A stretch of DNA of 64,000 nucleotides from Gammaproteobacteria bacterium (GCA_003645455.1 QNFE01000001.1:10359-74358); one strand, 5' to 3'; positions 1,079-50,546 are shown, numbered from the stretch's first letter. Notes: generated from the sequence alone by a model not told the origin. Program-made: numbers and translations.

Positions 1079-1948
1079 TTAGCATTTTTTGCCAATAATT
1101 TTCACTTCTAATTCTAATTTAATTTTAAATTTACTATAAACTTGCTCTCTCATAAGAGATATTAAGTTTTCAACATCCTGTGCTTTGGCATTGTTTTTGT
1201 TGATGATAAAATTTGCATGTTTGTCTGAGATGCAAGCCCCACCTATACTGACACCTTTCATATTGCATTCATCTAATAATTTGGCAGCAAAATTATTTGG
1301 TGGATTTTTAAAAACACTGCCACAGGATAAAGATCCGATCGGTTGATTTTTTTTACGAATCTCTAACAACTCTTTAATTTTTATTTTTTGCTCTTTTTCA
1401 AGGATAAATTCTGCTCCGAGAAACCATTCTTGTTGTTTGAGCTTAACATTACGATAAGAGACATCAAAATCATCTTTATTTGCCCATCTTGTTTGCCCCA
1501 AATCATTTATCATTTTTAATTTTTTAACGAGCTGCCAAATTTCACAACCAAAACTGCCGGCATTCATAGCCAAAGCTCCACCTATTGAGCCTGGAATTCC
1601 CATTAAAAACTCTGCACCGTATAAATTTTTACTACTGGCAAAACGAGCAAATTTGGCACAATTTATCAGAGCATCTGCATAGATTGTGTGGTGATTTATA
1701 AGCTTTATTTCTCCTTTGTTTTTCAAAGCAATAACAACATCATCCAAGCCACCATCACGCACTAATAAATTTGATCCTTGCCCGATAACAGTTATATTTT
1801 TTTCACCATTTAATTTTTTTAAAAAAGATTTTAATTCTTGATTGTTTTCAGGTTGAAAAAAATACTCCGCAGGGCCTCCAATTCTCCAAGATGTGTGCCT
1901 GCAAAGAGGTTCTGATTTTTTTAATCCCTTGTAGTTTAAAATATTCAT
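1079..1948 (-). CDS. murB: UDP-N-acetylenolpyruvoylglucosamine reductase
   Basis: FAD-binding MurB-like sequence (HTSWRIGGPAEYF...GSNLLV...). Its start ATG at 1948-1946 overlaps the murC stop as ATGA. It lies between murC and ddl. Confidence 0.85.
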   Translation of the reverse strand: MNILNYKGLKKSEPLCRHTSWRIGGPAEYFFQPENNQELKSFLKKLNGEKNITVIGQGSNLLVRDGGLDDVVIALKNKGEIKLINHHTIYADALINCAKFARFASSKNLYGAEFLMGIPGSIGGALAMNAGSFGCEIWQLVKKLKMINDLGQTRWANKDDFDVSYRNVKLKQQEWFLGAEFILEKEQKIKIKELLEIRKKNQPIGSLSCGSVFKNPPNNFAAKLLDECNMKGVSIGGACISDKHANFIINKNNAKAQDVENLISLMREQVYSKFKIKLELEVKIIGKKC

Positions 1949-3363
1949 AGGTTTACCATTTTTTGCACCTGTACCGATATATCTCCTGCACCTATACACA
2001 ATACAACATCTTGATCTTGACATATTTTGGCAAGATTATCTCTCATGTTGCTTATATCGTCAATAAAAATAGGGTTAGTTATCCCACGAGCACGAATATT
2101 TTGACAAAGATGTCTGCCATCTGCTTGCTCTATTTTTTTCTCAGAGGCTGCATACACCTCTGATATCAATAAAATATCTACTGTTGACAAAACACTACTA
2201 AAATCATCTAATAATTCTTGTGTTCTACTATATCTATGAGGTTGAAAAACCACGACTAATCTTTTGTCAGCATAACAATCGGTGGCAGCTTTTATCGTTG
2301 CTGCTATTTCTGTGGGATGATGAGCATAATCATTGATAAGGGTAATTTTTTTATCTGGCAGTTTTACATTTCCATAGACATCAAAGCGACGATTGATGCC
2401 ATTGAAGTTACCTATGGCATTTTTAATCGTTTTTTTATCTATTTCTAATAAATCTGCCAAAGCTATGGCAGCTGTTGCATTTTGCACATTATGTTCCCCT
2501 GGCATAGGCAATTTTATGCTGCGCATAAATATCTTGTTATTTTTTTGTAAGTCAAAATAACTGCAATGATTTTTATAGCGTAAGTTTGTTATCTTATAAT
2601 CTGCATCATCGGCAAAACCATAGGTTAAAATAGGTTTTGTAATCTGGGAGATTAAATTTTTAACCACTGTATTATCAATGCATAGAATTACTGTTCCATA
2701 AAACGGCACTTGGTGTAAAAACTTGACGAATGTTTGCTTTAATTTTTCAAAACTACCACCATATGTTGACAGATGATCGGCATCAATATTAGTGACTATT
2801 GCTATCATAGGATGCAGATATAAAAATGATGCATCGGATTCATCTGCCTCGGCAATTAAATACGCACCTCGTCCTAATTTTGCATTTGAGCCTGTGTTAT
2901 TCAAAACTCCTCCTATAACATAGGTAGGATCTAAATCTGTATGATTTAAAATCTGGGCGATAAGGCTCGTTGTTGTTGTTTTGCCGTGTGTTCCTGATAC
3001 TGCAACCCCTAATGAAAACCTCATAAGCTCTGCTAACATTTGTGCTCGTGGAATTATAGGTATTTTTAATTTTTTAGCAGATATAATTTCTGGGTTTTTA
3101 TTTGTTATGGCAGATGATATCACAACAACATCAGCGGACTTTATGTTTTCTCCGCGATGTTTGTTATAAATAATCGCACCATTATTTTTAAGTTTTTCAA
3201 TGGTTTTATTGCCTTGAATATCGCTACCATAGATTTTAAATCCTAAATTTAATAAAACCTGGGCTATGCCGCTCATTCCTATGCCACCTATACCGACAAA
3301 ATAGATTGACTTCACATTAAAAGACGGCATTTTATTGATATAAAATCTATTATTGCTAATCAT
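1945..3363 (-). CDS. murC: UDP-N-acetylmuramate--L-alanine ligase
   Basis: Mur ligase motifs are present (FVGIGGIGMSG, GTHGKTTTT). It is 472 aa and sits in the dcw gene order. Confidence 0.9.
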   Translation of the reverse strand: MISNNRFYINKMPSFNVKSIYFVGIGGIGMSGIAQVLLNLGFKIYGSDIQGNKTIEKLKNNGAIIYNKHRGENIKSADVVVISSAITNKNPEIISAKKLKIPIIPRAQMLAELMRFSLGVAVSGTHGKTTTTSLIAQILNHTDLDPTYVIGGVLNNTGSNAKLGRGAYLIAEADESDASFLYLHPMIAIVTNIDADHLSTYGGSFEKLKQTFVKFLHQVPFYGTVILCIDNTVVKNLISQITKPILTYGFADDADYKITNLRYKNHCSYFDLQKNNKIFMRSIKLPMPGEHNVQNATAAIALADLLEIDKKTIKNAIGNFNGINRRFDVYGNVKLPDKKITLINDYAHHPTEIAATIKAATDCYADKRLVVVFQPHRYSRTQELLDDFSSVLSTVDILLISEVYAASEKKIEQADGRHLCQNIRARGITNPIFIDDISNMRDNLAKICQDQDVVLCIGAGDISVQVQKMVNL

Positions 3364-6923: not shown

Positions 6924-8002
6924 CTTATTTTTAAGGATGATAGTCCCACTAAAACCAAAATGATTGAAACTATCCAAAAACGCACTATAATTCGAGGCTC
7001 CATCCATCCCATCATTTCAAAGTGATGATGCAGCGGTGCCATTTTAAATACTCTTTTCCCTCTTGTTTTGAATGACACCACTTGAATAATAACACTTATT
7101 GTCTCAGCCACAAAAACACCTGCCATAATAAATAAAACTATCTCTTGGCGAATTATAACTGCTACAATTCCCATTGAGGCTCCAATTGATAATGAGCCAA
7201 CATCACCCATAAAAACTTCGGCAGGATAGGCATTAAACCACAAAAAACCAAGACCTGCTCCCACCATAGTTCCACAAAAAATAGCAAGTTCTCCTGTGCC
7301 TGAAATATGTGGAATTCCCAAATAATTTGAAAAATAAAAATGCCCTGTGACATAGGCGAAAATACCCAGTGCACCGCCTATCATAACAGAGGGCATAATC
7401 GCTAAACCATCCAGACCGTCGGTAAGGTTTACGGCATTTGATGAGCCCACAATTACCACGAATGCTAAGGGTATAAATAAAAATTCCATTTGCCACTGAA
7501 AATCTTTTACATAGGGTAAAATTAGAGTTGTTGTAATATCCTTATCCACGAATAAATAAAGATAGAACACAGCAACAAGAGTTAAAATAGATTGTAAGCT
7601 AAATTTTACACCAGCACTTAGCCCTTTTGAGTTACCGTACTTTAATTTTTTATAATCGTCAACAAAGCCTATCATGCCAAAAGATAGGGTTACAAATAAT
7701 GTAATTAAAATATAAACATTAGTTATATCTGCCCACAGTAGGGTAGATACACTCATAGATAACAATAACATTATGCCTCCCATAGTTGGTGTTCCTGTTT
7801 TTTTCAGATGGCTTTGGGGGCCGTCATCACGAATGCTTTGTCCTATTTTATTTATTTTTAAATATTTTATTAAAAATGGTGCCATAATAAATGATAATAT
7901 TAAAGCAGTTAAAACTCCTAACACGGCTCGCAGAGTAAGATATTGAAAAACATCAAAACCGCTATGGTATTGCGATAAATATTCTGTAAGGTAAATCAGC
8001 AT
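6920..8002 (-). CDS. mraY: Phospho-N-acetylmuramoyl-pentapeptide transferase
   Basis: Ten-transmembrane MraY/WecA family protein of 360 aa, conserved in the dcw position. Confidence 0.9.
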
Positions 8003-27409: not shown

Positions 27410-27418
27410 AAAAATCCC

Positions 27419-27600
27419 GTCATTGCGAACGGAATTATAAAATCTCAAAAAATCCCGTCATTGCGAGCGGAACGAAGTGTAGCGAAGCAATCTCGTCAAA
27501 ACGGACGGATAATAACGAGCAAAAAGAACCCTCGTCATCGCGAACGAGCTTGCGAGTGTGGCGATCTCATAGTAGCAGACGGATAATAACAATAGAATAC
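27419..27600. repeat. Cluster of about 2.3 tandem copies of an approximately 78 bp element of the 'cccgtcattgcgagcgg...gcaatctc' type in the glmU-glmS spacer
   Basis: Direct repeats 'aaaaatcccgtcattgcgaRcgga' at 27415 and 27444. Units at 27448-27516 and 27528-27597 both end in 'gacggataataac'. Each unit carries an imperfect internal palindrome (attgcgagcg ... cgaagcaat). Confidence 0.6.
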
Positions 27601-37409: not shown

Positions 37410-37784
37410 CTATTTAATAATTAAATCCAATGCTTTGGATAGAGTTAAGAAAAAACCAATCATTGCGATTAACATCACCATATTTTTATTCAAAGCCTGT
37501 TGAATTATTGTTTTTATGTCGCTTTTTAAAAGAGCAAATTCACCTTTTAAACCAGTAAACTCATCTTTTAAACCAGTAAACTCATCTTTTAAACTTGCTA
37601 CATCAGAGGTTACCTCATCTAATTTTTGATCCAAGTGATTGATATGGTTATATTGAGATTTTAACAATAAGGTATTTATATCTTCTTGTTTTAAGCCCTC
37701 ACCACGGACGAATCGCTCCTCTATTTCTTTTAATTTTGGAGTTATCATCTCGATTAACATACTGTCTATATTAGTTTTATTCAT
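37410..37784 (-). CDS. Coiled-coil protein with C-terminal transmembrane helix (DUF1640-like)
   Basis: Heptad-rich sequence with an in-frame 21 bp tandem duplication encoding LKDEFTG twice, and a hydrophobic C-terminus. Confidence 0.45.
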   Translation of the reverse strand: MNKTNIDSMLIEMITPKLKEIEERFVRGEGLKQEDINTLLLKSQYNHINHLDQKLDEVTSDVASLKDEFTGLKDEFTGLKGEFALLKSDIKTIIQQALNKNMVMLIAMIGFFLTLSKALDLIIK

Positions 37785-37827: not shown

Positions 37828-38805
37828 TCAACAAATATCAAAAATGTTTTTAATTAAAACAGGACCACGGTAAATTAAACCTGTAAAAATCTGCACCAGA
37901 GAGGCACCAGCTTTGAGTTTATCATCGGCAGATTTTTTATCCATAATTCCACCTGAGGCGATTATTGGTAAATCTCCTTGATATAAATCTGCTAATTTTT
38001 TGATTATTTTGGTTGTAGTCTCGTTTAATGGTTTGCCTGATAAACCGCCGGTTTGTTGATAACTGTGTTGGACGGTGGTGTTGGTGGCAATAATGCCGTC
38101 CATTTTGCTGCCTCTTATAATTTTGGCAACTGTTATTAGTTGAGTATCATCCATATCTGGGCTTATTTTTACGACTAAGGGCGTCCATTTTTTGGTTTGG
38201 TTGAATATTTTTATTTGCTCTTGTTTTAATCTTGTAAGGAGCTTTTGAAGGTTAGCAGGTTTCAACAAATCTCGTAAATTTGGAGTATTAGGAGATGATA
38301 AATTTATACTAATATAATCGCAATGTTGGTATGAAACTTGCAAACAATATAAATAATCGTCAATGGCATTCTCGTTTGGAGTGTTTTTATTTTTGCCGAT
38401 ATTAATCCCGATAATTCCACTAAAAGAACTTGATTTTAATTTTTTAATCGCATATAAAATCCCTTTGTTATTAAAACCCATCCGGTTGATGATAGCTTGT
38501 TCTTTTTTATAACGAAAAAGCCTCGGTTTGTCGTTACCTTGTTGTGGTTTTGGAGTTAAAGCGCCGATTTCAATACAACCAAACCCAAGCGATTCTAACG
38601 CATCAATATAATCACCATTTTTATCAAAACCTGCTGCTAACCCAATTTTGTTAGGAAACTGCAAACCCATAACCTCCACAGGTTTTTTATATTCAACCAA
38701 GCTAAAATTAGCCCAGATTTTCAGCATTTTTAGGCTAAAAGAGTGAGCGACCTCAGGGGGTAGGGCAAACAAAAAAGGACGAGATATTTTATAAAGTGTT
38801 TTCAT
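37828..38805 (-). CDS. pyrD: Dihydroorotate dehydrogenase (quinone), class 2
   Basis: Membrane-associated N-terminus typical of class 2 DHODH, 325 aa. FMN-binding motifs are present (GLAAGFDKNG, GGIMDKKSA). Confidence 0.9.
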   Translation of the reverse strand: MKTLYKISRPFLFALPPEVAHSFSLKMLKIWANFSLVEYKKPVEVMGLQFPNKIGLAAGFDKNGDYIDALESLGFGCIEIGALTPKPQQGNDKPRLFRYKKEQAIINRMGFNNKGILYAIKKLKSSSFSGIIGINIGKNKNTPNENAIDDYLYCLQVSYQHCDYISINLSSPNTPNLRDLLKPANLQKLLTRLKQEQIKIFNQTKKWTPLVVKISPDMDDTQLITVAKIIRGSKMDGIIATNTTVQHSYQQTGGLSGKPLNETTTKIIKKLADLYQGDLPIIASGGIMDKKSADDKLKAGASLVQIFTGLIYRGPVLIKNIFDIC

Positions 38806-38863
38806 AGGTTAGCTGTCCCCAATAATTTTTATATCATCAGCTGGTGCTTGTTTGTAATTTTTT

Positions 38864-39961
38864 CTAATCATAGTTTTCGTCCAATAGTTTAATTAGAGTT
38901 TTTGCATCTGGTAAAATATTTTTATATTTTTTTGGCAGTTGTGAGCTGGTATTAAATGTAGCAACCCCCATAGCTTTATTAAAATCTCTGAATGCAAATT
39001 CTACGGTTTTATTTTTCTTTTCTTTGCAAAGGATTATACCTATTGATGGGTTTTCGTGTTCTTGTTTTATGTATTCGTCAAGGGCAGAGAGATAAAAATT
39101 CATCTTTCCTAAATATTCTGGTTTGAATTTTCCTGTTTTTAACTCTATGGCTACTAATGCTTGTAAATTACGATTGTAAAACAATAAATCAACAAAATAT
39201 TCTGTATCATCAACTATTATTCTGTATTGGTTGCCAATAAATGCAAAATCAGCCCCAAGTGTTGAGATAAATTTTTTAATATTTTGCACGATTTCATTTT
39301 CTAAAACTCTTTCGTTGTCTTGCTCTTCGTCTGTAAGACTTATAAAATCTAACAAATAATGGTCGTTAAAGTTTTGTAATGATTTTTGTCTTTGTTGGGT
39401 GTCACTTATTGTTTGGTTAAAATTATTTGGCAACATTCCCTGTTTTTCAAATAATTTATTTTTTAGATGCTGTTTTAAAACTCTAACAGTCCAAAACTCG
39501 TCTGTTGATTTTTTGATGTAAAACAACCTCTCGTTGATTTTTTTTGTCTTGGCGATTATCTCGCAGTGAGCGGTAAAACTTAATTTTGTAAAACAATCAA
39601 CTAATAAATTTATATCAATATCTAATTGGTCAGTCAATGACTGGCTAATTGATTTTTTGTTATTTTCGGTAATTTCATCTATAAAATATAAATTCCATTC
39701 TTCATAAAATGCTCTCATATTTTTTAAATTTGAATATGAAAATCCTCTTAAACCACTCAATTCAATTTGTAAATCGTCTGATAGTCTTTTGATGGTTTGA
39801 TTGCCCCATTTTTCAGTTGCAACTTTTTTGGATATTATTTTTCCTACATTAAAATATAAGTTTAATAACTCTTTGTTAGCAACTTTGGCAACTTCATAAC
39901 GACTTTTTATTATTTGTTGCTTTAAATTTTTAAGAATCTTGATATAATTGTCAATAATCAT
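38864..39961 (-). CDS. YhcG/DUF1016 family PDDEXK nuclease
   Basis: N-terminal YhcG-type region (LSGLRGFSYSNLKNMRAFY). C-terminal PD-(D/E)xK core (DLLFYNRNLQALVAIELKTGKFKPEYLGKMNFYLSALDE). Confidence 0.7.
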   Translation of the reverse strand: MIIDNYIKILKNLKQQIIKSRYEVAKVANKELLNLYFNVGKIISKKVATEKWGNQTIKRLSDDLQIELSGLRGFSYSNLKNMRAFYEEWNLYFIDEITENNKKSISQSLTDQLDIDINLLVDCFTKLSFTAHCEIIAKTKKINERLFYIKKSTDEFWTVRVLKQHLKNKLFEKQGMLPNNFNQTISDTQQRQKSLQNFNDHYLLDFISLTDEEQDNERVLENEIVQNIKKFISTLGADFAFIGNQYRIIVDDTEYFVDLLFYNRNLQALVAIELKTGKFKPEYLGKMNFYLSALDEYIKQEHENPSIGIILCKEKKNKTVEFAFRDFNKAMGVATFNTSSQLPKKYKNILPDAKTLIKLLDENYD

Positions 39962-39966
39962 TATGT

Positions 39967-40176
39967 TTATCCCTGTTTTAATTTTATAAAAATATTGACA
40001 CTAACCCTTTGCAACATCTTAAACATGCCATCACCATCAGGACACTTTTCCGCTATGTTGTGACTCTCATGCAAATCCAAAATATAAATTTTATCAAAAC
40101 CTGCTGCCAACCCAATTTTATTAGGAAATTGCAAAGCAAACAAAAAAGGACGAGATATTTTATAAAGTATTTTCAT
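39967..40176 (-). pseudogene. Mosaic gene relic: pyrD 5' end fused to a pyrD internal piece and a piece of the Type IIG RM gene interior
   Basis: The 69 aa ORF reads MKILYKISRPFLFAL (pyrD aa 1-15), then QFPNKIGLAAGFDK (pyrD aa about 48-61), then IYILDLH...CPDGDG...VSVNIFIK (RM enzyme aa about 600-645). At DNA level it is a diverged copy of 38762-38805, then 38620-38664, then 41690-41812. Confidence 0.7.
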
Positions 40177-40217
40177 TTTAAATTTTTATTACACCAAAGT
40201 TTCATAAGAAGGACCTA

Positions 40218-40318
40218 AATAATTCTATAAAATCCGTCACTGCGAGACAAAGCCCTGTCAGTCTCGGATACTACCAAGAGATTGCCGCGGTCGCAAGCTC
40301 GCTGCAATGACGGGTTTT
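40218..40318. repeat. About 100 bp element with terminal inverted repeats (aaatccgtcactgcgag ... ctcgctgcaatgacgggttt), related to the glmU-glmS spacer repeats
   Basis: Shares the 'ccgtcaYtgc...gcgagcttgcga...gcaatctc' core with the 27419-27600 elements. It sits immediately 3' of the RM gene stop. Confidence 0.55.
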
Positions 40319-40319
40319 T

Positions 40320-43300
40320 TTATTTATCCTCAATAATTTTTATTTTATCAATCTGTTGCATTATTTTATTTGTTTCAAAAAGCACATAAATAATTTTTTG
40401 ATAGTGAGTTATGTCTGTGTTTGATAACTCGTAATCTTGGTCTTTGCGAGATTTGAGCCATTTTTGTAAAGGCTGATAACCGCCGATAAAAAAATTCCAA
40501 GCGATAGATGGCACATTATCAAAATATTGATTTTTATTTATCCACACTTTTCCTGTGCCATCTTTTTCTTTGCTTTCTATAAAAGTATGTTTTTCTACTG
40601 TCGCATCTCCATCTCCTTTAAATGGACTTATTATATCCGTTAATTCTATATTTTCCATTAAATGCAACTTGCGAAGTGTTGCACCTTTTTCAATACATTG
40701 CCAAAATGTTTTTTTATCCGCAGGATATGGCACACGAGGGAAATCAATTTTTAAAAACTCTTGGTATTTCTTGCGGTATTTTGGTGAATGCAACACAGCA
40801 TAAATATAATCCAAAATATCAATCGGCGATAGGTAATTTTGAATTTTTTCTGCTTTAAATTCTAATTTTAAATTGTCTGCTATTTTTTCAACAATTTTCA
40901 TATCCAAGTTAGGTTTTCTACTCTTTTCTGTGAACATTCCATCTGATTCTTTGTCTGGGTAAAGATATAACGGACAAACATAATCTCCTCCTTGCATGCC
41001 AGGGCGAGACCAACTTCTAAAATCAATTATATTTGCAGAAACAAAACAAGGTGAAGCATTTTTCTCTACAAAACCTCTTTTAAAAACCAATCCAATATTT
41101 TCAGTTTTTAGAAAATGAGACATAACCTCGCCTCGTGGCATACACAAAAAACCTTTTGATTTTTTGGAATAATAAGTCCATCTATTATCAAATGGACGAT
41201 ATGATATTTTTGTTATTTTTTTAAAATCAACTCCTGTTTTAATTAAATCTTTTTTTGCATATGAAATTTTCCAGTCACGAACATCCTTGCCTAATTTAAA
41301 ATGCTCTCTTGCCTCCTCGTCATCTAATTTTAAAAATTTTTGAATAGTTTTTTTAACCTCATCTGCTGTTTTATGAATAGTAAAGTTATCACGAGCTGTT
41401 ACTATGCCAACAGAATTGATAGGAAATAAATCTGTCAAAACAAAACCTTTATCATATTCGGCTTGGGCTTGGTAATCTTTGGGTTTAAAAAAATAATAGG
41501 GTTCTTGTGGTTTTAATTTTTCAAATTGAATACTTGTCAAATCATTTTCTAATAAAAAACCATATTTTGCTTGGCGTTTTCCGTAGAGATCAAAATGAAA
41601 AACTTTGGCTAATTTATTTGATAAGTTTTTGTTTTTTGCTGACAAGGGGACATGTCCCCTTGCTAAACCATGTCGTTTTTTCTTGATGAAAATATTGATA
41701 CTGACCCCTTGCATAATATCAAATACATTTTGATCTTTTGTGCCATCAGGGCAGACTTCCTTTTTTTTACTGTTGCCGTGTAAATCTATGATATAAATTT
41801 TATCATAGGTTTTTAAGAGATTGTGCCTCATGCCACGAAAGGTGGGGTTATCTAAAAAGCCGTGAGGGTTGATGAAGGCTAAAATTCCTTCGCCATTTTT
41901 TTCTATTAAATTTTGTGAATATTTAATAAACTTTACATAATCATCGTTAAGCCATTTTGAATTTTTTTCTTGTAATTTGCCACCTGTTGGCTCTTTTTTA
42001 TAATCATCTAATAGGTTTTCTATCCATTTGCCTTTGTTTGATGATTCACCGGCATAAGGCGGATTGCCTAAGACAATCATAACAGGGGTGTCTTTTTTAA
42101 CTCTATCGGCGGCACGAGACTCATCAGATAACCATTTGGCTCCAAATAATGACAAACCAGCATATTCGTGTTCTGGCTCTAAACTATTCGTCAAAAATAC
42201 ATTAAAACGATTATTGTTTTTGTCGTCTTTTTGATAACCTGTTGTTTTTAATAACATTTGTAATTTAAGATGACACATAGCATAGGGGGCAAGCAGTAAT
42301 TCAAAGCCGTTTAATCTGGGAATTAAATCTTCATCAACATATTTATGCCAACCGCCGGAGTTCGTGGTTTTTATGATATCGGCGATATATTTTATCACCT
42401 CACATAAAAAAGTGCCTGTGCCGCAGGCAGGGTCTAAGATTTGCACTTTATGAACTTGTTTGGTTGTTTTGGTTTGAGTTTTAGGGTCGTCAAATTTTAT
42501 ATTAACCATGCTTGTGTCACAAATCCCATCGCTTATTTTAAAGTCTTTTTTTAAAACATCATCACAAGCTTTGATGATAAATTTAACAACAGGTTCCGGG
42601 GTATAATAAACTCCACGAGATTTTTTTAATTGGGGGTTATAATTATGCAAAAATGTTTCATAAAAATGAATCATCGGATCTTGTGTGGCAGTTTTTTTGC
42701 CAAAGTCTTGTAGGATATTAGATAAATTAGCATGACGGAAAATATCAACCAAAGCATCAACAATCCAGATAATTTCTGTGTCTAAATTTGCACCGCCAAC
42801 ATATTCAAACAAATGTCGTAAAAATGGATTAGTGCGAGGCATAAGCTCCATTGCCTCATATCTTGAAAATGATTGCGGTGTTTTGTCGTGTAATCTGGCA
42901 GCAAACAAACCATAAGTTATAGTCTGGGAATAAATATCAGCAAAACTTGCCTCATCTAAGTCTTTTATTAGTATTTTTTGAAAACTAGTAAATTGCTCAT
43001 AAAGATTAGTGTTTTTGCAATCATCGCCGCAGGTTAAAGCTTTGTAAATTGCATCTTTTAATGTTTGGGCTTTGAGTGCCATAAGCGAGGCTAATTTTTC
43101 GGCTGTGTTTATTGTTGTGCCGTTATAAGCACAAAAGTTTTTTAAAAGATTTATAAAAGGTGCAAAGTTATCATTGATGGGTTTTATTTTATTGTTGGTT
43201 ATCGTAGCAATTTGAATAGTTTCAAGTTTTTTGATTTTATTGTCATCAGTTTTTTGATAGAATCTAAATTCAATATAATTAGTTGTCATTACATTGTCAA

Positions 43301-43610
43301 GTCGGCTGACATATCGCAATAATTGATTGTTGTTGTCTCCTTTTTCTAAGCCATCTAATAGGTTGTTTTTTAAATCTTTGGCTTCAATATAAGCGGTTGG
43401 AACTTTGTTTTTATTCTGCACTAAAAAATCAGGAGCACCACATTTTTGTTGTTTTGGTTCGTTGGTTATTGTAATATCTTTGATAAGGTTTTCTATAAGA
43501 TTTTTAAAAGCTGGACGATAGCTGTGTTCGGTAGCCTTGCCACTTTGGAAAAGATCTGTTACATTTTTTAAATATTCTTTGATATATGTTATATGCTTAG
43601 GTGGCTTCAT
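40320..43610 (-). CDS. Single-chain restriction-modification enzyme of Type IIG/IIL (MmeI-like) architecture: N-terminal PD-(D/E)xK nuclease, gamma-class N6-adenine methyltransferase, C-terminal target-recognition domain
   Basis: 1096 aa. PD...EAK nuclease motif near aa 60 (GAPDF...YIEAKD). Methyltransferase motifs YYTPEP, DPACGTGTFL (motif I) and GNPPY (motif IV). C-terminal TRD-type signature 'YIYAVLHSPKYRKKYQEFLKIDFPRVP'. No helicase domain, so not Type I, III or ISP. Confidence 0.7.
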   Translation of the reverse strand: MKPPKHITYIKEYLKNVTDLFQSGKATEHSYRPAFKNLIENLIKDITITNEPKQQKCGAPDFLVQNKNKVPTAYIEAKDLKNNLLDGLEKGDNNNQLLRYVSRLDNVMTTNYIEFRFYQKTDDNKIKKLETIQIATITNNKIKPINDNFAPFINLLKNFCAYNGTTINTAEKLASLMALKAQTLKDAIYKALTCGDDCKNTNLYEQFTSFQKILIKDLDEASFADIYSQTITYGLFAARLHDKTPQSFSRYEAMELMPRTNPFLRHLFEYVGGANLDTEIIWIVDALVDIFRHANLSNILQDFGKKTATQDPMIHFYETFLHNYNPQLKKSRGVYYTPEPVVKFIIKACDDVLKKDFKISDGICDTSMVNIKFDDPKTQTKTTKQVHKVQILDPACGTGTFLCEVIKYIADIIKTTNSGGWHKYVDEDLIPRLNGFELLLAPYAMCHLKLQMLLKTTGYQKDDKNNNRFNVFLTNSLEPEHEYAGLSLFGAKWLSDESRAADRVKKDTPVMIVLGNPPYAGESSNKGKWIENLLDDYKKEPTGGKLQEKNSKWLNDDYVKFIKYSQNLIEKNGEGILAFINPHGFLDNPTFRGMRHNLLKTYDKIYIIDLHGNSKKKEVCPDGTKDQNVFDIMQGVSINIFIKKKRHGLARGHVPLSAKNKNLSNKLAKVFHFDLYGKRQAKYGFLLENDLTSIQFEKLKPQEPYYFFKPKDYQAQAEYDKGFVLTDLFPINSVGIVTARDNFTIHKTADEVKKTIQKFLKLDDEEAREHFKLGKDVRDWKISYAKKDLIKTGVDFKKITKISYRPFDNRWTYYSKKSKGFLCMPRGEVMSHFLKTENIGLVFKRGFVEKNASPCFVSANIIDFRSWSRPGMQGGDYVCPLYLYPDKESDGMFTEKSRKPNLDMKIVEKIADNLKLEFKAEKIQNYLSPIDILDYIYAVLHSPKYRKKYQEFLKIDFPRVPYPADKKTFWQCIEKGATLRKLHLMENIELTDIISPFKGDGDATVEKHTFIESKEKDGTGKVWINKNQYFDNVPSIAWNFFIGGYQPLQKWLKSRKDQDYELSNTDITHYQKIIYVLFETNKIMQQIDKIKIIEDK
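41643..41662. repeat. 20 bp perfect palindrome 'caaggggacatgtccccttg' inserted in-frame in the RM gene
   Basis: Encodes ...RH-GLARGHVPLS-AKNK... A GC-rich island in an AT-rich gene. It is a variant of the 22 bp palindrome at 44389 and 50525. Confidence 0.6.
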
Positions 43611-43999
43611 ATTTGCTGTTGTTGTAAGTCTGACACAATTTCGGCAATTTTAATAAAATCGTTATCATTGTGAACCAAGATTAAATCATTTTCAATGGCA
43701 CAACAGGCGATAAGGCAATCTATTGTGGAGCGAATTGTTATACCTTTTTGGCGGCATTTCATATAAATGTTGGCAGAGTTTTCATAACTTTTTAAATTAT
43801 CTTGCAATGAATAAAATTTTTGTTGATTTAGTATGTTTTTTAATTTGTTAAAAAGTGATGTGTTTTTTGCACCCTGTAAAACTTCCATATAAATTACACC
43901 AGTTATTGCAGTTTGTTTTTTTGCATATAATGTTTTTATAAAATCAGTAGAATTATTATTAAATAAATCAATCCAAATAGAAGTATCAATTAAATACAT
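43607..43999 (-). CDS. vapC: PIN-domain toxin (VapC family)
   Basis: N-terminal 'MYLIDTSIWIDLF' PIN signature with conserved acidic residues. 130 aa. Its stop overlaps the RM start codon as ATGA. Confidence 0.75.
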   Translation of the reverse strand: MYLIDTSIWIDLFNNNSTDFIKTLYAKKQTAITGVIYMEVLQGAKNTSLFNKLKNILNQQKFYSLQDNLKSYENSANIYMKCRQKGITIRSTIDCLIACCAIENDLILVHNDNDFIKIAEIVSDLQQQQI

Positions 44000-44012
44000 T
44001 TATGCAAAGGTT

Positions 44013-44267
44013 TTATTTATATTTTGGCAGAGAGCGGGAGCGCATTGCTTTATAATCGTAGCCTTCAAAAAATGGACTTTCTCCATCTAATGATTTTATG
44101 AGCCAATCTAAACCATTGTTTTTGTGATTTTCAATATATTCGTGCAAAGCTTTGTCAATTATCGCTCTTTTGCTTTTAAGTTTGCTTAATTTTAAAGCTT
44201 GTTGCACTATATTTTCATCCAAAACAACATTTGTGCGGTGTAGGGTTGGTAACATTTTAACTCTCAT
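44013..44267 (-). CDS. vapB: VapB-type antitoxin (ribbon-helix-helix, Rv0623-like)
   Basis: 'TNVVLDENIVQQALKLS...KRAIIDKALHEYIE' resembles RHH antitoxins. It lies 13 bp upstream of vapC. Confidence 0.6.
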   Translation of the reverse strand: MRVKMLPTLHRTNVVLDENIVQQALKLSKLKSKRAIIDKALHEYIENHKNNGLDWLIKSLDGESPFFEGYDYKAMRSRSLPKYK

Positions 44268-44388
44268 GTATTGAAAAATGTGTATAATAACATAAATTAT
44301 GTGTATATGTTATTTTTTAATGTTATAAATTCTCATTATATTTTGGATAATATTTATTAAACTGGCAACAACAAACATTTCTGTATTG

Positions 44389-44410
44389 ACAAGGGGGCAT
44401 GCCCCCTTGT
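44389..44410. repeat. 22 bp perfect palindrome 'acaagggggcatgcccccttgt' (intergenic, upstream of vapB)
   Basis: Perfect palindrome centred on GCATGC. An identical 22-mer occurs at 50525-50546. Confidence 0.65.
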
Positions 44411-44543
44411 TAGTTCTTGTGTCCGATTGAAGACATGTATTTTTAACTGCCGAGTTAATATATAACTCAATCATAAAGCATTCTCATCTAATGTTTTATT
44501 TTGCTGTTGCTTGGTTTGATATTTTAAAATAATATATTCCAAA

Positions 44544-44933
44544 TTATCCCATATCAAGTATAATTTTAAAATTTTGTTGTTGCCATAACTGCTTGGCGTA
44601 ACCTTTTTTAAAAGCGATCAGTTTTTCTTTTGCATTACGAGAGTGGGCATAATTAGGAAAGGTGCTGTTGTCAAGTCCTTGTCCATATTTTTGATTCAAA
44701 CGAGAGGAATAATCAAAGTAAGTTAACCAATTTGCAGGTTTTATCATTGTTTCAACGGCTATTATTATATTATCTTTTGTGTCAATTTTTATGTTTTTAT
44801 CGGTTATTTTGTTGGTATTTTGTGTCATTCCACCCAAACAATATTTGTTAAAAACTAATTTAATGCAGTCATCAGCAATTAAAGAATTGTGAAAATTTAA
44901 TAACAATAAAAATATTAGAATTTTTAATTTCAT
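44544..44933 (-). CDS. Hypothetical secreted protein
   Basis: 129 aa with an N-terminal signal peptide. No recognisable motifs. Confidence 0.35.
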   Translation of the reverse strand: MKLKILIFLLLLNFHNSLIADDCIKLVFNKYCLGGMTQNTNKITDKNIKIDTKDNIIIAVETMIKPANWLTYFDYSSRLNQKYGQGLDNSTFPNYAHSRNAKEKLIAFKKGYAKQLWQQQNFKIILDMG

Positions 44934-50524: not shown

Positions 50525-50546
50525 ACAAGGGGGCATGCCCCCTTGT
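50525..50546. repeat. 22 bp perfect palindrome 'acaagggggcatgcccccttgt' in the sdhA-sdhB spacer
   Basis: Identical to the 22-mer at 44389-44410. It begins 1 bp after the sdhA stop. Confidence 0.65.

Follow-up and report, generated by a model that had tools for sequence, protein, structure and literature searches.

A vapBC toxin-antitoxin pair ahead of a single-chain restriction-modification gene in a defence islet upstream of pyrD

Introduction

A toxin-antitoxin pair that lies directly in front of a restriction-modification (RM) gene raises the question of whether the two form one working operon or merely share the same mobile DNA. This question is posed by a 64,000-nucleotide stretch of a Gammaproteobacteria bacterium genome (GCA_003645455.1, QNFE01000001.1:10359-74358; the window hereafter, with positions counted from its first letter), in which the region between 38,864 and 44,267, next to pyrD, contains a vapB-vapC pair, a gene encoding a 1096-aa RM enzyme and a yhcG gene. 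A previous interpretation made from the DNA alone (the sequence-only reading) had described a compact defence islet with vapC co-transcribed with, and translationally coupled to, the RM gene. The analysis presented here points, with a probability of about 0.6, to a hotspot of RM turnover upstream of pyrD, where the promoter comes from a vapBC cassette, which probably also stabilises the locus, and where the RM gene is the third cistron.

Results

Gene content of the islet

The sequence-only reading had placed a co-oriented gene set next to pyrD; open reading frame (ORF) calls establish the same genes directly, at the same coordinates and all on the minus strand, and family searches bear out their domains. 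In the direction of transcription the order is vapB, vapC, the RM gene, a mosaic relic, yhcG and pyrD:

44013-44267, minus strand: vapB antitoxin gene, 84 aa if the ATG at 44267 is the start, but more probably 80 aa with the ATG at 44255 as start.
43607-43999, minus strand: vapC PIN-domain toxin gene, 130 aa, with PIN and NCBIfam VapC matches.
40320-43610, minus strand: single-chain Type IIG/IIL RM gene, 1096 aa, with Pfam, PADLOC, alignment, profile and fold matches.
39967-40176, minus strand: mosaic relic ORF, 69 aa, composed of pyrD pieces and a piece of an older RM allele (RM').
38864-39961, minus strand: yhcG/DUF1016 PD-(D/E)xK nuclease-family gene, 365 aa, with Pfam and PADLOC matches.
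38809-38866, minus strand: RM' 3'-end relic, the final approximately 60 nt of RM' with its stop codon.
37828-38805, minus strand: pyrD, quinone-dependent dihydroorotate dehydrogenase (DHO_dh 2.3e-71 and source annotation), the core-gene right flank of the islet.

The vapBC cassette and its junction with the RM gene

The vapB product matches Pfam VapB_antitoxin (1.9e-11) and has 80 aa in the public gene call. VapC matches Pfam PIN (2.6e-12) and NCBIfam TA_toxin_VapC (1.8e-39; 134.7 bits against a cutoff of 80), and its acidic PIN residues D5, E39, D94 and D112 are intact and invariant in a 32-sequence alignment. The two genes are co-oriented with a gap of 13 nt. Both proteins appear to co-vary with their relatives: VapB is 64% identical to the VapB of locus L084, which begins MLPTLHRT, and VapC is 62% identical to the VapC of the same locus. 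By family assignment the pair shows the PIN toxin and the cognate antitoxin of a VapBC type II toxin-antitoxin system; PADLOC has no model that matches VapB or VapC. Two further elements are located upstream of vapB:

44276-44306, minus strand: promoter/operator-like motif of the vapBC cassette, ATACACAT-N14-TATTATACACATTT, conserved among cassettes.
44385-44414, no strand: palindromic terminator-like hairpin ACAAGGGGGCATGCCCCCTTGT, 13 pairs, the approximate left edge of the islet.

The motif shows two ATACACA direct repeats around a -10-like TATTAT/TATAAT, an arrangement conserved in seven of the eight aligned vapB upstream regions, and we infer an operator role for it. The vapBC cassettes share 65-68% DNA identity with the window; similarity with the seven others starts about 50 nt upstream of vapB and ends about 30 nt before the vapC stop. 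Since the hairpin separates the upstream dctPQM-orf129 genes from the cassette and the motif is conserved, the cassette probably brings its own, VapB-controlled promoter. The vapC stop reads ...CAA ATA TGA and the RM start ATG AAG CCA, sharing ATGA at 43607-43610, and there is no space for a terminator between them; the cassette-borne promoter would therefore be the most likely driver of RM transcription.

Co-transcription and translational coupling of vapB, vapC and the RM gene are thus likely from their co-orientation, the overlap and the missing room for a terminator, as had been proposed, but the overlap itself is ordinary for this genome. Exact 4-nt overlaps are shown by at least six further co-oriented gene pairs of the window, and the ATGA type is the commonest operon junction; it signals operon membership and is not proof of coupling. 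The missing Shine-Dalgarno sequence at the RM start was rejected as a sign of coupling, because only 12% of the window genes have a strong one (the 4-mer core is found upstream of five of 41 long ORFs) and its absence is uninformative. Promoter and terminator consensus scans were also discarded as a test of an internal RM promoter, being too noisy in AT-rich DNA, where promoter-like matches are generally common. A default junction of this kind fits an alternative explanation, fortuitous juxtaposition, in which two selfish or mobile modules came together in a recombination hotspot, the overlap arose by compaction, and the RM gene has its own promoter and no interplay with vapBC. The distribution of the cassette and of the RM family, described below, makes this alternative unlikely.

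Recurrence of the vapBC subclade in RM operons

Around the closest VapC relatives, which are 51-62% identical to the window protein, RM or methyltransferase neighbours are found in eight of nine contexts. The contexts, including the exception, are as follows:

L082, L169 and L170: SNF2 helicase, two to three VapB, VapC, a 41-aa ORF, Bro-N and an Eco57I/TaqI_C gene of 1058-1193 aa, next to a moa operon.
L171: same site as L082, L169 and L170 in another strain, with two VapB, VapC, the 41-aa ORF, Bro-N, HsdR, YhcG/DUF1016 and HsdS.
L084: PLD-SNF2 helicase, VapB, VapC and a large N6_Mtase protein, the last separated from VapC by 2 nt.
L085: upstream, Eco57I/MmeI-like methyltransferases; downstream, a fragment of an N6_N4 methyltransferase.
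L175: SNF2, VapB, VapC, a 176-aa ORF and an Eco57I/TaqI_C gene.
L176: GmrSD-HNH, VapB, VapC, a 440-aa ORF and an m5C-MTase::R.HinP1I gene.
L172: Dam-like methyltransferase, VapB, VapC and argG.
L086, 306-1989 (also L087 and L088): vapBC of 56% identity, with vapC overlapping the start of a hisC-like aminotransferase gene by 4 nt.

The sole exception among the close relatives is L086, a housekeeping operon encoding an aminotransferase, a prephenate dehydrogenase and an EPSP synthase; its 4-nt overlap, within the same vapBC family, is a further point for juxtaposition by chance. More distant VapC relatives (at most 51% identity) were collected in a metagenome scan with the VapC alignment, mostly on short contigs, and their 10 annotated downstream genes are housekeeping genes (GH3, HflX, alcohol dehydrogenase, aspartyl-tRNA synthetase, ArgJ and others), one unassigned ORF and one Cas1. 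The contrast between eight of nine RM or methyltransferase contexts in the close subclade and none of the 10 annotated downstream genes in the distant set argues against chance. A hidden Markov model (HMM) of the RM family gave no matches among all ORFs around the VapC relatives; therefore, the association is with restriction genes in general, of other families. Going by these gene neighbourhoods, the vapBC subclade shows a strong preference, not remarked on before, for positions at the head of RM operons or within them; no paper was found in the literature on a vapBC-led Type IIL operon or on this subclade.

Several of these loci contain traces of rearrangement. Tandem vapB genes, in two or three copies before a single vapC, are present in L082 (4078-5001), L169 (5085-5988) and L170 and L171 (5421-5998), and every one of these copies is preceded by the conserved upstream motif. 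In L171, an hsdR-yhcG-hsdS operon occupies the place where the sister strains have the SNF2 and Eco57I-like system, and a 187-nt duplicate of the vapC 3' end (7369-7555), 92% identical to the resident copy, is located about 110 nt upstream of hsdR. In L169, a 53-nt repeat flanks the Bro-N insertion. The L171 fragment and the L169 repeat suggest an earlier state with vapC immediately next to the RM gene, and an exchange of the cargo by recombination inside the cassette. Such relics place vapC next to hsdR in a donor (L171), which again counts against a fortuitous neighbourhood.

Upstream neighbours of the RM family

The association was also examined from the side of the RM enzyme, in the upstream neighbours of 78 RM-family loci, with one genome per species. 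Most of these loci show gaps of more than 50 nt and unrelated upstream genes. Among 55 small co-oriented upstream ORFs, Pfam detects one PIN (L066), one ParE (L063) and one PemK (L078) toxin gene, together with single SocA/Panacea and MNT-like matches. Locus L066 (5349-9201), from a Rickettsiales metagenome-assembled genome (MAG), contains genes encoding a MazE/AbrB-type antitoxin of 79 aa and a PIN toxin of 127 aa, the latter with its stop overlapping the RM start as ATGA. Phmmer searches with the window VapC, VapB and YhcG gave no matches among the neighbours of the 78 loci. Since the window VapC does not detect the L066 toxin, the latter belongs to an unrelated lineage and its arrangement is independent, and yhcG, for the same lack of matches, is not a regular partner of the RM family. 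The vapBC-RM arrangement with its ATGA junction thus appears to have arisen convergently in L066, and toxin-led versions of the family seem to arise repeatedly. This convergence bears against chance juxtaposition, in whose favour 75 of the 78 loci have no upstream toxin gene and defence islands are generally rich in toxin-antitoxin genes (PMC12707154).

Domains and completeness of the RM enzyme

The RM protein shows, in order, a PD-(D/E)xK nuclease, a helical connector, a gamma-class N6-adenine methyltransferase and a Type ISP-like target recognition domain (TRD; residues 727-1085). The TRD is detected by Pfam Type_ISP_C (1.4e-87, residues 727-1085, profile positions 1-341 of 342) and the methyltransferase by N6_Mtase (1.5e-14), Eco57I (3.1e-10) and MmeI_Mtase (5.6e-07), and PADLOC REase_MTase_IIG matches the protein end to end with 1087 bits. 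In an alignment of 23 sequences (the RM protein and 22 homologues), the nuclease motif P60 D61 ... E76 A77 K78 and the methyltransferase motifs DPACGTG and NPPY (516-519) are invariant. The best solved relative is DrdV, whose sequence profile match (E 1.4e-53) is colinear including the N-terminus. An AlphaFold (AF2) model of residues 1-300 (mean confidence, pLDDT, 82.8) has DrdV chains as its top structural match (E 8e-7), with a template modelling (TM) score of 0.74 against the isolated DrdV nuclease chain 7lvv_C and a VRR_NUC nuclease domain next. All three parts named by the sequence-only reading, nuclease, methyltransferase and TRD, are therefore found by family, alignment, profile and fold evidence, and in its domain content the protein is a complete, single-chain DrdV-like Type IIG/IIL enzyme. 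The resemblance to DrdV is distant, since a search of the PDB with the single sequence finds it in several separate segments (E 4.5e-34), and identity in the N-terminal structural alignment is 13-18%. The family is very large, with all 8000 scored candidates at E <= 1e-20, and the best non-self database match is 55% identical.

DrdV and the MmeI-type Type IIL enzymes have the same domain order as the RM protein and no ATPase motor. The next solved relatives after DrdV are the Type ISP enzymes LlaBIII and LlaGI, with the match confined to the methyltransferase and TRD (residues 842-1524 of LlaBIII). In contrast to the 1096-aa RM protein, these enzymes have 1570-1578 aa and a superfamily-2 helicase-like ATPase between nuclease and methyltransferase; no helicase family was found in the RM protein by Pfam, which sets it apart from Type ISP. 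Its Pfam match carries the name Type_ISP_C because the methyltransferase and TRD modules of DrdV are closely related to those of Type ISP enzymes (bioRxiv 10.1101/2021.01.06.425610).

The RM gene also shows one feature found neither in its homologues nor in DrdV and MmeI:

41640-41665, no strand: in-frame palindromic insert of the RM gene, adding 15 residues RHGLARGHVPLSAKN, identified by repeat search, pattern search and alignment.

The insert is present in 0 of the 22 aligned homologues. Together with weak matches to BREX (bacteriophage exclusion) PglX and MAD2 models, it is what could be adduced for a non-cleaving protein, either a methyltransferase only, PglX/BREX-like or otherwise, or an enzyme inactivated by the insert. 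This is highly improbable. The PglX models reach 12-17 bits over the methyltransferase motif alone (PADLOC PglX 2e-4, 16.9 bits), BREX_6 reaches 15.9 bits against a cutoff of 900 and NCBIfam MAD2 40.8 bits against 720, and they stand against the full-length Type IIG match, the invariant PD...EAK, the DrdV-like nuclease fold and the TRD. No brxA/B/C, brxL, pglZ or other BREX genes are near the RM gene, whose neighbours are vapBC, yhcG, pyrD and dctPQM, and the protein does not appear to belong to PglX; the methyltransferase-only, PglX-like case that would have undone the sequence-only reading is contradicted by the nuclease and TRD and by the missing BREX partners. The insert, moreover, is in frame and lies in the linker between methyltransferase and TRD, which varies in length among the aligned homologues and DrdV.

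Relics of RM turnover upstream of pyrD

The mosaic relic ORF, which the sequence-only reading had noticed, is real and not a product of chance. It consists of three pieces fused in frame: codons 1-15 of pyrD (40176-40136; pyrD nt 1-41, 98% nt identity), codons 49-62 of pyrD (40135-40089; pyrD nt ~141-187, 94%) and a stretch corresponding to RM aa 602-646 (40098-39973; 51% aa identity, E 9e-8), with the pyrD'/RM' join at a shared microhomology of 8 nt, TGATAAAA. The 58-nt spacer between yhcG and pyrD is a diverged RM 3' end (44 of 60 nt identical to RM nt 3232-3291, E 4e-7), which encodes ...DDIKIIGDS* against ...DKIKIIEDK* in the RM protein and has its stop 3 nt before the pyrD ATG. As this diverged end survives between yhcG and pyrD, an older RM allele, RM', appears to have once abutted pyrD. 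The RM' piece breaks at the same protein point as the insert of the RM gene (after ...NIFIK).

yhcG occupies the place of RM' nt ~1937-3231, the TRD-coding part. Its product matches Pfam YhcG_C (1.5e-53) and DUF1016_N (1.4e-29) with near full profile coverage, as well as the PADLOC candidate PDC-S02 (7.5e-119), and with both domains present it is assigned by these matches to the YhcG/DUF1016 PD-(D/E)xK family. The gene is indeed between the vapBC-RM operon and pyrD, as had been noted, but inside the remains of an older RM gene. DUF1016 genes are frequent in RM loci and have been reported beside Type I and Cj0031-type IIG loci (PMC9881135), and the window gene resembles these and the L171 copy in both Pfam domains and in its RM neighbours; it differs in being located in the wreck of an RM gene and not in an intact operon, and it is 35% identical to the L171 copy.

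A simple tandem duplication was considered as the origin of the relics and rejected: the order of the fragments fits, but the RM' relics (39973-40098 and 38809-38866) are 68-76% identical in nucleotides to the RM gene and the pyrD' pieces 94-98% identical to pyrD. This mismatch requires that the RM allele was replaced at least once. The fragments show assembly by recombination and uphold the proposal that the islet was acquired in this way. The 5' part of RM' would have been displaced by a block containing vapBC, the RM gene, its hairpin and pyrD', joined at the 8-nt microhomology, and the TRD-coding part of RM' would have been replaced by yhcG.

In a Flavobacteriales MAG (L003, 3891-4922), a 343-aa ORF located about 1 kb upstream of an RM-family homologue is matched by the relic ORF (phmmer E 6e-4). 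Since the relic ORF is largely made of pyrD fragments, this ORF may be pyrD-like, and the match is perhaps due to chance.

Flanks and repeat elements

Housekeeping genes flank the islet, dctPQM and sdh beyond vapBC and pyrD, prmC and rsgA beyond yhcG. Two small ORFs are found in these flanks. The ORF at 44544-44933 encodes 129 aa with a hydrophobic N-terminus and has no Pfam or NCBIfam family match. The ORF at 37410-37784 encodes 124 aa with a repeated LKDEFTGLK motif, and its sole Pfam match is below threshold (DivIC, E 0.0016, 18.6 bits against a cutoff of 28.9). The following hairpin is located directly after the RM stop:

40225-40315, minus strand: GC-rich REP (repetitive extragenic palindrome)-like hairpin CCGTCATTGC...GCAGTGACGG, fold -32.2 kcal/mol, z -2.4.

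This element has related half-units at 27417-27467 and no Rfam match, and is probably a transcript end or a stabiliser of the operon. It was rejected as an islet-specific bracket because short REP-like units recur elsewhere in the window. The palindrome CAAGGGGGCATGCCCCCTTG of the left-edge hairpin (44390-44409) is found as the same 20-mer at 50526-50545, with a near copy inside the RM ORF. As the perfect palindrome CAAGGGG[A/G]CATG[T/C]CCCCTTG of 20-26 nt it is present in three copies (41640-41665, 44387-44412 and 50526-50545) against 0.01 expected; two of them are intergenic and terminator-like and one is the in-frame insert of the RM gene.

No integrase, transposase or insertion sequence (IS) was found among the ORFs of 38806-44414 and no att repeats at the islet, whose long direct repeats all consist of pyrD or RM relic fragments; no tRNA or Rfam match was found in the whole window. 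The islet thus has the marks of neither an integrative mobile element nor a classical genomic island, and of its description as bracketed by repeat elements the short hairpins at the flanks remain. The comparison of pyrD flanks that had been proposed for defining the borders gave a nearest pyrD of 69% identity (P0242; L174), with entirely different neighbours and no borders by synteny.

Discussion

The locus is best explained as a site of RM turnover upstream of pyrD at which the RM gene is transcribed from a vapBC cassette. In this explanation, vapBC with its own conserved promoter/operator-like motif would form a three-cistron operon with the RM gene through the 4-nt ATGA overlap, and a promoter repressed by VapB or VapBC would set a low, autoregulated transcription of the RM gene. 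By analogy with DrdV and MmeI, the enzyme is predicted to recognise an asymmetric site through its TRD, to methylate one adenine as the mark of self DNA, and to cut unmodified DNA at a fixed distance once several site-bound molecules assemble. VapBC addiction would oppose deletion of the locus, and the conserved vapBC DNA and pyrD would act as homology arms for the exchange of RM cargo.

Several observations weigh against this explanation. The subclade member L086 heads a housekeeping operon, so the cassette also lands elsewhere, and a small number of related metagenome projects account for many of the vapBC contexts, which are therefore not fully independent. The RM family is normally solitary, with a toxin gene directly upstream in approximately three of the 78 loci; therefore, the enzyme does not need a toxin-antitoxin partner. 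A promoter-like match in the vapC 3' end (43674-43647, 10/12) could drive the RM gene independently, and the palindromic insert might impair the enzyme. Finally, the closest genome by pyrD is not syntenic and offers no empty site for comparison.

PIN RNases such as VapC typically cleave tRNA or rRNA. Both stabilisation of the locus and an abortive-infection back-up by VapBC, as the sequence-only reading had suggested, are plausible roles. The second of these leads to an explanation different from RM turnover with a promoter-bearing cassette, namely that VapBC is a functional back-up, or guardian, of the RM enzyme: if a phage stopped host transcription or translation, or blocked or evaded restriction, the labile VapB would decay and VapC would arrest translation in an abortive infection, and co-translation with the RM gene would keep both layers in step. 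The repeated presence of the subclade inside RM operons of unrelated types and the independent PIN, ParE and PemK genes upstream of the same RM family speak for it, as does the conceptual and experimental precedent of RM-linked suicide modules, such as PrrC in EcoprrI (PMC3506569, PMC12707154) and DarTG2 in a Type I RM system (PMC12255303). The sequence, however, contains nothing by which the state of the RM enzyme would govern the activation of VapC. PrrC-type guardians are restrained by the RM complex, whereas VapBC comes with an antitoxin of its own, and the lack of PADLOC models for the pair gives the idea no support. Co-residence in mobile defence DNA explains the association equally well, and a layered defence is a rather unlikely explanation, slightly less so than mere juxtaposition.

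The sequence-only reading had considered the fusion of an addiction module to a single-chain RM enzyme not to be a textbook arrangement. This is overstated, since toxin-antitoxin genes in RM operons are documented (PMC12255303, PMC3506569) and the vapBC subclade is repeatedly ahead of RM genes. In enteropathogenic Escherichia coli (EPEC), the toxin-antitoxin pair DarTG2 lies inside a Type I RM system, with a single promoter under repressor control (PMC12255303), and PrrC in EcoprrI accompanies the hypothesis of coupling between immunity and suicide (PMC3506569, PMC12707154). In these operons, as would be the case in the window judging from its genes, the toxin gene and the restriction genes share a repressor-controlled promoter region in a defence locus. 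The window differs in that the toxin-antitoxin pair is VapBC, located ahead of the RM gene and not between hsd genes, in that the partner is a single-chain Type IIL enzyme, and in that no separate regulator such as RptR is found, so that VapB itself would be the repressor. Like canonical chromosomal vapBC, the window pair shows a small antitoxin gene closely before a PIN toxin gene, complete acidic residues and an upstream operator-like repeat; unlike it, the operon runs unbroken into a 3.3-kb RM gene, and the subclade prefers RM or methyltransferase neighbourhoods, with the antitoxin gene of relatives in two or three tandem copies. Compared with most RM-family members, the window gene is set apart as the third cistron of a toxin-antitoxin operon. 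The vapBC-RM operon is thus a recurring variant of a known theme and not a new kind of system.

A more far-reaching idea is that the subclade is a dedicated leader of RM operons, with its VapB-controlled promoter as an establishment or expression controller for many RM types (like C-proteins or RptR), VapC as a guardian that fires on shut-off of the operon, and the cassette as a portable homology arm. This is speculative and unlikely to hold in full; if true, toxin-antitoxin-led RM operons would be a distinct and widespread functional class and not co-located selfish modules.

Without a functional coupling between vapBC and the RM gene, what remains is an ordinary defence islet whose Type IIL enzyme can be annotated well. 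With such a coupling, a toxin-antitoxin promoter would regulate and stabilise a single-chain RM enzyme that lacks both a C-protein and a separate methyltransferase as buffers against its toxicity, and VapBC would become one of the few toxin modules integrated into restriction operons. The relics upstream of pyrD are an unusually clear record, at the level of single bases, of RM allele replacement at a core-gene hotspot, in which the joins were made at microhomologies and toxin-antitoxin and core genes served as anchors.

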